Below the pieces are notes generated by a model. It was not told where the DNA came from and searched no databases. It saw only the letters and a list, made by a program, of their open reading frames with translations. Below, piece by piece: positions 4,379 to 23,233 of a stretch of DNA of 64,000 nt. The position numbers and the translations under genes are program-made. Source of the stretch: a virus. Its lineage: Duplodnaviria > Caudoviricetes. Position 1 is the stretch's first letter; the number at the start of each line of letters is the position of its first letter. Location: positions 1 to 64,000 of the IMG/VR virus record IMGVR_UViG_3300035422_000089. The stretch is one strand, 5' to 3'.

Positions 4379-4606
4379 ATGAGTAAAATGTATAATGACA
4401 TAGTTGAAAGATTAAATAACAAAAAAGAGGAATTAACAAAATTACAAGAACAATTTAAAGTAATGTGTCATAATGACATGCAGTCACAATGTTTTGAACA
4501 AAATGCAATTCATTCTTTAATAGTAATGCAGCGTTTGAAATCTGAGATAGAAGAACTGGAATATTGGGAAATGTATGTGAGAATACAAATGACAAATGCA
4601 GATTAA
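4379..4606 (+). CDS. Hypothetical coiled-coil protein
   Basis: ORF with GGAGG SD. Confidence 0.6.
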   Translation: MSKMYNDIVERLNNKKEELTKLQEQFKVMCHNDMQSQCFEQNAIHSLIVMQRLKSEIEELEYWEMYVRIQMTNAD

Positions 4607-4640
4607 TATCAATGAAAGTTGTTTTAAGTGGAGGTAGAGC

Positions 4641-20531: not shown

Positions 20532-20590
20532 AAAGGATACGAATGTTCACTAGTGAAGAAAGCTGCGCAGCTACTAAGTAATGGTGAACA
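20532..20590 (+). promoter_or_regulatory. Methyltransferase leader, family 2 copy F
   Basis: 57/59 identical to 31729..31787; palindromes TTCACTAGTGAA and AGCTGCGCAGCT; outer stem TGTTCAC/GTGAACA. Confidence 0.8.
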
Positions 20591-20593
20591 AAA

Positions 20594-21361
20594 ATTAAAG
20601 TATTAGAATTATTCGCAGGAACTTGTTGCTTATCAAACGGATTCAAAGCAAGAGGACATGAAACATATACGATTGATATTGATAAACAATTTGATGTTGA
20701 TTGGCATATGGATTGTAGCAAGATTACTACAAAGGATATTATTGAAAGATTTGGTGTACCAGATGTTATTTGGTTAGGAACTCCATGTCAAAGTTATAGT
20801 ATAGCAGCCATCTCACACCATAGAAGAAAAAATGAAGAATCTGGGAATTTAGATGGTGTAAGCAATTTTGCGAGATTCTGTGATGAAATGAATTGGCACT
20901 GCAGAAAAATAGTTGAGGAATTATTAGAGATTAACCCCAATTTAATTTATTTTTGGGAAAATCCAAGATCTGCTTTTAGAAAAATGGATTTTATTCAGGG
21001 GATACCAAGATATACGATTTGGTATTGTAAATATATGACAGAGTTTCCACCAGAACAAAGAAGAGCCAAGCCAACAGATTTATTTACAAATCATCCGAAC
21101 CCTAAGTTTTTACCTGAGTGTAAAAATGGTTCTCCTGACCACGCAGTTGCTAAACGCGGTATGGCAACAGGAACTCAAGGGATGAAAAATGCAAAAGAAA
21201 GAAGTACATATCCAAAACAATTGGTTGAACATATAGTTGATATTTGCGAGCAGTATTTACACGAAAAAGAATTATTTGATGAATGTAAATCTTGTAAAAA
21301 CAAATGGTCTTCTATGAAGTGTGATATGTGTGAAGACTTTGATATGTATAAAAGGCAATAA
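20594..21361 (+). CDS. dcm: C5-cytosine DNA methyltransferase, probable ATT start
   Basis: (I/M)KVLELFAG motif I from 20594, GTPCQSYS motif IV, WENP motif VI; in-frame TGA at 20585. Confidence 0.75.
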   Translation: MKVLELFAGTCCLSNGFKARGHETYTIDIDKQFDVDWHMDCSKITTKDIIERFGVPDVIWLGTPCQSYSIAAISHHRRKNEESGNLDGVSNFARFCDEMNWHCRKIVEELLEINPNLIYFWENPRSAFRKMDFIQGIPRYTIWYCKYMTEFPPEQRRAKPTDLFTNHPNPKFLPECKNGSPDHAVAKRGMATGTQGMKNAKERSTYPKQLVEHIVDICEQYLHEKELFDECKSCKNKWSSMKCDMCEDFDMYKRQ

Positions 21362-21441: not shown

Positions 21442-22734
21442 TTGAGAAGAGAAAAAGAATTAAGAAATTGGGAACTGGTAAATTTCTGTGAATTTGATAA
21501 GTACGCAATTAAAAGCTACTGTGCAATTCATGGTGTAGACGAGAGTTTAAACCTTGGTGATATTACTAAGGTTAATGAAACAAAATTAGAAGATTTTAAT
21601 ATGATGACATGGGGATTTCCATGTACCGATATTTCCGTAGCCGGAAAGCAAAAAGGATTTTTAGACGAAGATGGTAACAAAACAAGAAGTGGCATGTATT
21701 ATGAAGGAATTCGTATTCTTAGACATAAGAAACCAGCATTATCAATTATTGAAAATGTAAAGAATTTAACAAGTAAGCGATTTAAAAAAGAATTTGAAAC
21801 AGTTTTATCGGACTTAGATGAAGCAGGATATAACTCATATTGGAAAGTTTTGAATGCGAAAGACTTTGGGATCCCTCAAAATCGTGAAAGAGTATTTATT
21901 ATATCAATTCGTAAAGATTTGGATAATGGCAGATTTACATTTCCTGAAGGTTTTGATAATGGAATCCGTTTGAAAGATATTTTGGAAGATGAGGTAGACG
22001 AAAAGTATTATATTTCTGATGATAAAGTGCAGAGATTTTTAACAAATCTAAATACTAATACTTCTTTACTATATGATCCGTGTCAGGTAAAAAGAGAAGG
22101 TAAATCAAGGGAATATAATGATTACTGTCCAACTCTAACTTCAAGAGATTACAAAGATTCCAGATTAGTAAATGAAAATGTTGTTAAACAAGTAGGTAAT
22201 ATTTCTGATTGTAATGGGAATTGGAAGAATCCACAAGTGGGGAGAATTTATGATCCTGATGGTTGTTCACCGACATTAAATACTTGTGGCAAAGGTAGCC
22301 ATGAACCTAAGATTGTTCAGGTTGGTAATGTAAATCCATCTGGTAAAGGTATGAATGGTAATGTATTTTCAGAAGATGGACTAGCACCAACTTTAACAAC
22401 AAATAAAGGTGAAGGAAATAAAATTTTAACAGGTATTAGAATCCGCAAACTAACGCCAAAAAAAACTTTCAGGCTTATGGGATTTTCTGATTCAGCATAT
22501 GACGCTGCAAGCAAAGTTGTTAGTAACAGCCAGCTTTATAAACAATCAGGGAATTCAATAGTAGTAGATATTTTATATTACATATTAGTTGAGTTATATA
22601 AGGCAATGCCATATCTGTTTGATGATTTGAAACTGAGCAGTTTCTTCTCAGGTATTGGTGCATTTGAGGCTAGTTTGGACAGATTGTATGAAAGCATCAA
22701 TACAGGAAATTTTACCAAACCACAAGTGGAGTAA
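21442..22734 (+). CDS. dcm: Circularly permuted, probably multispecific C5-cytosine DNA methyltransferase
   Basis: Order II (VNFCEFDKYA), III (LGDIT), IV (GFPCTD), VI (IENVK), VIII (PQNRER), variable region with 3 PTL modules, IX, X (LYKQSGNSIVV), then motif I (FFSGIGAFE) at the C-terminus. Confidence 0.85.
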   Translation: MRREKELRNWELVNFCEFDKYAIKSYCAIHGVDESLNLGDITKVNETKLEDFNMMTWGFPCTDISVAGKQKGFLDEDGNKTRSGMYYEGIRILRHKKPALSIIENVKNLTSKRFKKEFETVLSDLDEAGYNSYWKVLNAKDFGIPQNRERVFIISIRKDLDNGRFTFPEGFDNGIRLKDILEDEVDEKYYISDDKVQRFLTNLNTNTSLLYDPCQVKREGKSREYNDYCPTLTSRDYKDSRLVNENVVKQVGNISDCNGNWKNPQVGRIYDPDGCSPTLNTCGKGSHEPKIVQVGNVNPSGKGMNGNVFSEDGLAPTLTTNKGEGNKILTGIRIRKLTPKKTFRLMGFSDSAYDAASKVVSNSQLYKQSGNSIVVDILYYILVELYKAMPYLFDDLKLSSFFSGIGAFEASLDRLYESINTGNFTKPQVE

Positions 22735-22748
22735 ATTCTGCTTGTGGT
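22707..22748 (+). other. -1 ribosomal frameshift signal 1 (A_AAT_TTT plus hairpin)
   Basis: Heptamer 22707-13 in dcm frame; 5-nt spacer; 13-bp stem 22719-31/22736-48; TAA stop in the loop. Confidence 0.75.
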
Positions 22749-23051
22749 GAATATAAACCAGTTTTATTGGGTGGTATTGGAGAAATTAATTTTGGTAAAC
22801 AATATCGCCAAGGTAATCGTGTATATGATTCTAATGCAATAGCAATGTGTTTAACAGCACAACCATTAGGTAACGCTGGAGGATATAGTTATCTGTATGC
22901 TGTTGGAGCCGCTATGCGTGGCAGATATAATTCTGATGGTAAAACTGAACAACAGATAGAAGTAAGGGATGACGAGTTATCTAATGCAATTACAACGGTA
23001 TGGAAAGATAGTTTGGTTGTAGAAAATTTTCAGAAACCGCCAATGAGTTGA
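22713..23051 (+). CDS. -1 frame extension of dcm with two TRD-like modules (track ORF 22767..23051)
   Basis: QGNRVYDSNAIAMCLTAQ and ELSNAITTV resemble C5-MTase variable-region repeats; no SD before TTG 22767; frame open back through the slippery site. Confidence 0.7.
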   Translation, partial: YQTTSGVNSACGEYKPVLLGGIGEINFGKQYRQGNRVYDSNAIAMCLTAQPLGNAGGYSYLYAVGAAMRGRYNSDGKTEQQIEVRDDELSNAITTVWKDSLVVENFQKPPMS

Positions 23052-23065
23052 TATTCGTTGGCGGT
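23024..23065 (+). other. -1 ribosomal frameshift signal 2 (A_AAT_TTT plus hairpin)
   Basis: Heptamer 23024-30; 5-nt spacer; 13-bp stem 23036-48/23053-65; TGA stop in the loop. Confidence 0.75.
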
Positions 23066-23233
23066 ATAGAAAGTAAAAAGTGGTTGGATAATGGCAAATA
23101 TTTATCAAGAAACTATAAACAAGGGTATCGAGTATATGATTCAGATGGTATTGCATGTGCTTTAACAGCACAAGGAACAGGAGGATTGGGTGGGTATTCA
23201 GGATTGTATCTTGTTAGAAAAAAGAAGTATTAA
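23030..23233 (+). CDS. Second -1 frame extension with one TRD-like module (track ORF 23048..23233)
   Basis: QGYRVYDSDGIACALTAQGTGGLGGYSGLY is a paralog of the preceding module. Confidence 0.7.
   Translation, partial: SETANELIFVGGIESKKWLDNGKYLSRNYKQGYRVYDSDGIACALTAQGTGGLGGYSGLYLVRKKKY

Follow-up and report, generated by a model that had tools for sequence, protein, structure and literature searches.

In the tail-assembly-chaperone genes G/GT of phage lambda and in gene 10A/10B of phage T7, a slippery heptamer at the end of a gene lets a minority of the ribosomes shift into a -1 open reading frame (ORF) that has no start of its own and encodes a C-terminal extension. The ratio of the two products is thereby fixed, and many phages have conserved this arrangement. 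The lambda case is reportedly that of Xu, Hendrix and Duda from 2004, and the -1 frameshift of T7 gene 10A/10B is its phage parallel. Here, the end of a C5 DNA methyltransferase gene is described for which the same organization and the same kind of minority shift are predicted. The gene is located in a stretch of 64,000 nucleotides (nt) of a virus of the Caudoviricetes (positions 1 to 64,000 of IMG/VR record IMGVR_UViG_3300035422_000089; the whole stretch is called the window). The record is a 73.7 kb phage genome fragment with an estimated completeness of ~38%, and nearly all longer ORFs of the window are carried by the + strand. The gene probably contains two programmed -1 ribosomal frameshift sites, which would give rise to three isoforms that share the catalytic core and differ in the recognition modules added to it. 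In contrast to the lambda and T7 systems, the protein is an enzyme and not a structural or assembly protein, the extension consists of variable DNA-recognition modules, two signals can be chained so that three products are predicted, and the stop codon is placed in the loop of the stimulator.

A heptamer of the type X_XXY_YYZ, followed at 5-6 nt by a stem-loop, is also found in Escherichia coli dnaX and in orfAB of the IS3 family. Their heptamer is A_AAA_AAG, whereas the one found here is A_AAU_UUU. The outcome differs as well: an extension is predicted here, whereas dnaX yields a truncation and IS3 a transposase fusion. Heptamers of the form H_HH.U_UU.Y are among the most efficient ones in E. 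coli when a structure follows (PMC4066793).

With the methyltransferases of phages SPR, phi3T, rho11s and H2, the enzyme shares one catalytic core with several tandem target recognition domains (TRDs) of ~40-60 amino acids (aa). Core and modules are homologous to these enzymes; in rho11s, residues 248-307 match the appended modules 1 and 3, and the N-terminal region from motif I to motif III is nearly colinear. In these four enzymes, however, all TRDs are located between motifs VIII and IX and are read in one frame, whereas here motif I lies behind motif X and the extra TRDs would be appended through recoding. A natural permutation that puts motifs IX-X at the front is said to have been described by Xu et al. 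in 1997, and for M.phiBssHII, Sethmann et al. reportedly found extra TRDs in frame at a terminus, without recoding. In the enzyme studied here, the permutation separates motif I from motif II. Like M.BssHII and engineered circularly permuted C5 methyltransferases (PMC5944983), this enzyme has its ten motifs in a non-canonical order, presumably with an intact fold. The title of the report on M.phiBssHII (Sethmann et al., 1999, EMBO J 18:3502) speaks of a multispecific C5 methyltransferase whose TRDs are found at separated locations, and to the extent that the title tells, this is a precedent for TRDs that work away from the canonical variable region.

A literature search found no report of frameshifting in a DNA methyltransferase. 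The case treated by Brierley in 2013 is said to concern an rRNA methyltransferase resistance gene (erm) and not a DNA methyltransferase. The entry 'methyltransferases' in the PRFect paper appears to rest on Brierley (2013) and thus on macrolide-induced frameshifting and antibiotic resistance; it was not retained as a precedent. Frameshifting by -1 as such is textbook knowledge; in the literature searched, no case was found in which it widens the range of targets of a DNA-modifying enzyme.

The zero-frame product of 430 aa (21442..22734, + strand, as all features of the gene named below) was identified as a C5 DNA methyltransferase by its match to PF00145 (E 5.5e-67), which in the Pfam profile begins only at position 22. 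The catalytic motifs I, IV (PC), VI (ENV), VIII (QxRxR), IX and X are all present in the translation, and three TRD-like modules lie between motifs VIII and IX. The motif order is not the canonical I to X: motifs II to X come first and are followed by motif I (FxGxG, the S-adenosylmethionine-binding loop), which was located in the translation with a regular expression at 22642..22668, corresponding to residues 401-409 of 430. In the rho11s enzyme the same motif I is located at the N-terminus. Motif I follows motif X in all homologues of the permuted family, so that an initial annotation, made from the sequence of the window alone, had rightly called the enzyme permuted. Nearly all homologues, which range from 430 to 748 aa, end with motif I, a short helix and Gly-Asn-Phe plus a six-residue tail.

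The first slippery heptamer, A_AAT_TTT at 22707..22713, stands in the zero-frame register (GGA AAT TTT in the ORF that starts at 21442). A putative stimulatory hairpin (22719..22748) begins 5 nt past it and holds the stop codon TAA (22732-22734) in its loop. The same heptamer is found a second time at 23024..23030, now in the register of the -1 segment (GAA AAT TTT in the ORF that starts at 22767), and is again followed after 5 nt by a hairpin (23036..23065) with a stop codon, TGA 23049-23051, in the loop. Two heptamers in register, a 5-nt spacer and a stop in the loop had been proposed in the initial annotation and were recovered at both sites. It had further assigned 13 bp to each hairpin, which holds for hairpin 2 (13 bp, -20.6 kcal/mol, z -7.5) but not for hairpin 1, where the minimum-energy fold has 12 bp (-17.3 kcal/mol, z -4.65) and leaves the 13th pair outside. 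Among shuffled sequences, none folded as well as hairpin 1 or hairpin 2. AAATTTT occurs 73 times in the window when both strands are counted, and the strongest downstream structures are those of sites 1 and 2, the next best having -8.4 kcal/mol. The occurrence of both signals in the window is far from chance. A search of Rfam gave no family matching the region of the frameshift signals.

From each heptamer, the -1 frame is open into the next ORF (22767-23051 and 23048-23233, respectively). The first -1 segment (22713..23051, 112 codons) opens at heptamer 1 and comprises a hairpin-encoded linker and a pair of TRD modules; the second (23030..23233, 67 codons) comprises one TRD module and ends with the stop codon TAA at 23231-23233. 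The 3' arm of hairpin 2 encodes the beginning of the next TRD module. The predicted products have lengths of 430, 536 and 597 aa. These open frames and isoform lengths agree with those given in the initial annotation, as does the lack of a Shine-Dalgarno-like sequence upstream of TTG 22767. Between the methyltransferase ORF and the downstream ORFs, no promoter-like or terminator-like site was found. Three independent mouse-gut assemblies contain the region, 551 nt in length, without a single difference, and at least 24 contigs encode the 430-aa protein. The arrangement is therefore not due to an assembly error.

The proposed mechanism is as follows. Most ribosomes would pass heptamer 1 in frame and stop six codons further on in the hairpin loop, resulting in the 430-aa enzyme, which would be a complete permuted multispecific C5 DNA methyltransferase. 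In a fraction of the ribosomes, the hairpin 5 nt downstream would cause a stall while the Asn- and Phe-tRNAs are positioned on A_AAU_UUU, and these ribosomes would slip back by one base, bypass the stop codon and add 112 residues with two TRD modules to give the product of 536 aa. About 317 nt further, a sub-fraction would slip again at the identical device and add the third module, giving 597 aa. One catalytic core would in this way be produced at a fixed isoform ratio with three, five or six recognition modules, and the extra modules would presumably protect the phage genome against more host restriction specificities. Frameshifting itself is predicted here from sequence, and the longer isoforms are likewise expected, and not observed, to methylate additional sites as specified by their modules.

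The appended modules are homologous to known TRDs. With tblastn, residues 13-64 of the first -1 segment matched rho11s residues 248-307 as well as the enzymes of phage H2 and of Dulem virus 39 (residues 403-452), in each case between motifs VIII and IX, where TRDs canonically lie, and residues 66-102 matched the C5 methyltransferase of Bacillus phage vB_BceS_LY1. The third module, in the second -1 segment, is close to the rho11s TRD at residues 248-307. Internal and appended modules both have matches among the enzymes of rho11s, H2, phi3T and Dulem virus 39. No catalytic motifs were found in the appended segments and Pfam gave no match to them; the downstream ORFs had been described as variable-region-like modules devoid of catalytic motifs, and they can now be named TRD homologues. 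Selection on these modules, natural fusions (see below) and the title of the M.phiBssHII report suggest that the modules function as TRDs at their C-terminal position. In an AlphaFold2 model of a natural fusion (L088, alignment of 69 rows), the catalytic core including the strand and helix of the C-terminal motif I was predicted with moderate confidence, and the predicted local distance difference test score was <50 in all TRD regions, internal and C-terminal alike, so that the docking of the modules is not readable from the model.

Relatives of the locus were collected in three sets, namely 80 viral loci (mostly on contigs of 80-200 kb), 80 loci from prokaryote assemblies (mostly Lachnospiraceae and other Clostridia) and 41 loci of a second methyltransferase family. 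A junction was counted as a full site if its AAATTTT was in register and was followed at 5-6 nt by a hairpin of -10 kcal/mol or lower, if the zero frame ended in a stop, and if the -1 ORF was 40 codons or longer. This resulted in 59 unique full-site junction sequences in 107 phage or prophage loci, distributed over two methyltransferase backbones. Heptamer 1 is retained in 42 of 43 unique homologous junctions. At the 59 unique sites, the codon preceding AAT is GGA, GAA, GTA, AGA, GCA, ATA or TTA, and the X position is therefore constantly A although these codons encode seven different amino acids; from the codon usage in these genes, the spelling GGA-AAT-TTT of Gly-Asn-Phe would be expected in only ~23%. 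The zero-frame stop is located six codons past the heptamer in 55 of the 59 sites.

Stem covariation was computed on an alignment of 36 junctions. For hairpin 1, both sides were changed in 11 of the 12 stem pairs, and pairing was observed in 90.8% of the alignment cells compared to 39-50% when the partner was slid by one to three columns. The observed covariation values were reached by none of 500 shuffles. At the same position at least five mutually dissimilar stem sequences are used, each with the stop in the loop: the common CCACAAG type, the type of L021, L060 and L064, the type of window site 2 with L089 and L163, and those of L091 and of L092. In L089 and L163, whose hairpins are homologous to hairpin 2 of the window, the pairing is kept through one-sided changes. 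That stems unrelated in sequence are found at the same spot argues for structure rather than homology. With 59 unique sites, the register kept and the stem covarying, heptamer and stem are conserved in homologs in the way the initial annotation would lead one to expect.

The placement of the stop in the loop recurs in all five unrelated stem families and is convergent. It could reflect termination inside the stimulator, or the loop may simply be the one part of the site on which no double coding constraints act.

Locked fusions, lost stems and damaged heptamers among the relatives amount to a ready-made mutant series. In L045, the modules are fused in frame via a deletion of 5 nt in the loop that includes the stop. 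In L181, one extra C in the spacer leads to an in-frame fusion, with heptamer and stem otherwise intact; because this C mimics a -1 shift exactly, L181 represents a natural locked fusion. L088 has neither heptamer nor stem and is read directly in frame into two modules, and further in-frame fusions are L075 and the 609-aa proteins P0048 and P0050. At loci without a downstream module the hairpin is absent as well; the heptamer is kept in L011 and L037, and both hairpin and heptamer are lost in L036, L055, L057 and L062. Prophage relatives in Dorea, Faecalimonas, Coprococcus and others have the permutation, with a stop right after the motif I helix, and lack the cassette of heptamer, hairpin and linker.

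In the frame to which the heptamer gives access, the -1 ORFs run for 50-225 codons without a stop, and this frame opens only 2-7 codons upstream of the heptamer. For one module type available in 13 DNA versions, the median rates of non-synonymous (dN) and synonymous (dS) substitution were 0.10 and 1.47, with a dN/dS of 0.07, which indicates strong purifying selection on the protein encoded in the -1 frame. These data also bear on the proposal that heptamer and hairpin are mainly a joint at the DNA level, used in recombination for the exchange of TRD cassettes, while the modules form a silent and untranslated reservoir. Closely related contigs do have near-identical junctions followed by wholly different module sets, the same linker is found on two different methyltransferase backbones, and module boundaries often coincide with the NF junctions. 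However, neither the dN/dS value nor the long open stretch in the single frame started by the heptamer is expected for a silent reservoir, the unrelated stems argue for structure and not for homology, and the A at the X position together with the codon register is specific to ribosomal slippage. As an account of the main function, the joint is therefore unlikely; recombination and frameshifting are not exclusive of each other, and the junction may serve both.

Side by side with these selected ORFs, broken ones were observed. One module type contains an A7/A8 run (codons for Tyr-Ala-Lys-Lys-Ile), and in L024 and L069 the -1 ORF is interrupted at the run or immediately past it, with the remainder of the module in another frame; in a comparison at the peptide level, L143 ends at the same position. 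The run may be prone to mutation, the break may have arisen in assembly, or A_AAA_AAA may act as one more slippery site.

Gene callers annotate the downstream ORFs of the window as separate genes of 94 and 61 aa, and C5 methyltransferases made of two polypeptides are known (M.AquI, M.EcoHK31I). The modules might accordingly be produced separately, by reinitiation downstream of the loop stop or by translational coupling, and act in trans as small TRD proteins. Yet four unique -1 ORFs of 96 codons contain no ATG, GTG or TTG anywhere, and most others have their first candidate start >100 nt from the beginning of the ORF, within the TRD core and usually without a Shine-Dalgarno-like sequence. Moreover, the natural variants fuse the modules in frame to the enzyme. 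Separate translation is thus highly improbable compared with fusion by a -1 shift.

The same fusion proteins would result if the frame were changed by the polymerase, for which A/T runs are a slippage substrate, and not by the ribosome. Productive transcriptional slippage needs about 7 or more identical bases, whereas the runs here have three and four; the A3/T4 lengths are invariant over the 59 unique sites, and no homopolymer of about 7 or more was found at the frame change. The hairpin at 5-6 nt and the strict codon register are features of ribosomal slippage, and slippage in transcription has very little to commend it. That the loci are decaying remnants of a longer ancestral gene, with ordinary frameshift mutations, or sequencing errors, as A-run indels, nonsense codons and deletions in L024, L064, L065, L069, L072 and L166 could suggest, is contradicted by the comparative data and hardly deserves credence, because the frame breaks at the same nucleotide in 107 loci at 45-100% protein identity, with identical DNA in independent assemblies, purifying selection and stem covariation.

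Several points weigh against programmed frameshifting with functional extensions. L046 has AAACTTT ahead of an intact hairpin and -1 ORF, the heptamer of L086 is one T shorter with a module ORF still downstream, and no slippery heptamer is recognisable ahead of the hairpin and -1 module of L061 and L066. The T missing in L086 points either to an inactivation that happened recently or to an error in sequencing. A TRD in its usual place is followed by motif IX; the TRDs appended behind motif I or motif X are not, and their activity there is a prediction. When C-terminal and internal modules of 192 family members were compared by BLAST, one match with E<1e-4 and a few short, weak ones with E<0.05 were obtained, and from this near-absence of matches to the internal variable regions it follows that the appended repertoire differs from the internal one. 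Finally, the support for frameshifting is comparative throughout. Within that scope, every sequence-level prediction of the -1 frameshift put forward in the initial annotation that comparison could address has been supported.

Two of the aberrant groups showed further peculiarities. In L086 (positions 4549-4640; contig labelled 'Lachnospiraceae bacterium isolate A75_68.CO.DSS'), the coding sequence of the enzyme crosses the stem in the third frame and ends immediately behind it. L061, L066 and L075 form a sub-lineage that ends with Gly-Glu-Phe, with the junction ~40 nt past motif I. A C-run of variable length (5, 4+3 or 9 C) precedes a different hairpin with a stop in its loop, and no X_XXY_YYZ heptamer is present; L061 and L066 have their module in the -1 frame, L075 has it in frame.

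Chained sites are rarer than single ones and occur in two other lineages as well. In L071, two sites are 203 nt apart, and their stems differ at several paired positions while both fold. In L163 and L165, a site of the common type is followed by one of the window's second type, and in L089 the hairpin type of window site 2 is used as the first site. In L018, L039 and L044, the same third module is joined in frame, with no second signal. A methyltransferase family with canonical motif order (L122, L163-L205), found on phage contigs of similar size (mostly 110-190 kb), ends with the same heptamer, stem, linker and module sets, so that the cassette is independent of the permutation. Tentatively, and with more reserve than for the frameshift sites themselves, heptamer, stop-in-loop hairpin and linker might be regarded as a portable cassette, spread among gut phages onto at least two backbones and chainable to graded isoforms, in which the C-terminal TRDs would act, the frameshift efficiency would set the ratio of specificities, and the joint would also anchor a rapid swapping of TRDs in the restriction arms race.

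If the long isoforms are active, TRDs of a C5 methyltransferase would work at the C-terminus, behind motif I or motif X, which bears on the docking of the small domain and on the engineering of methyltransferase specificity. The protection of a phage against restriction would then be tuned in translation, with up to three products per gene. Since gene callers split such loci into a methyltransferase and small hypothetical proteins, assignments of methylomes to genes would in that case be systematically incomplete, and this would concern gut phages and prophages of Lachnospiraceae and other Clostridia.

Other changes of gene structure were seen in the methyltransferase family. In some relatives, a gene for an HNH/AP2-type endonuclease is inserted at the helix after motif I (L023:5358-6026, L087:4613-5281); in these two, a short substitute sequence ends the methyltransferase, and the frameshift cassette is missing downstream of it. 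The P0104 protein contains the endonuclease as an in-frame part of the methyltransferase, flanked on either side by a copy of the helix. P0013, P0027, P0059 and P0103 carry an insert of ~200 aa just before motif IX that is absent from the other family members examined.

Upstream of the gene in the window (20581-20710), the start region of a small neighbouring ORF resembling C5 methyltransferases was noted. This ORF is called from ATG 20708, and its frame is open from 20588, with a motif I (LFAG) upstream of the first canonical start. The single in-frame start candidate before this motif is ATT 20594, 6 nt past GGTGA, and a tiny ATG-GTG ORF in a different frame overlaps the region near 20594. 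The neighbouring ORF could have a non-canonical start or be subject to a further recoding event.

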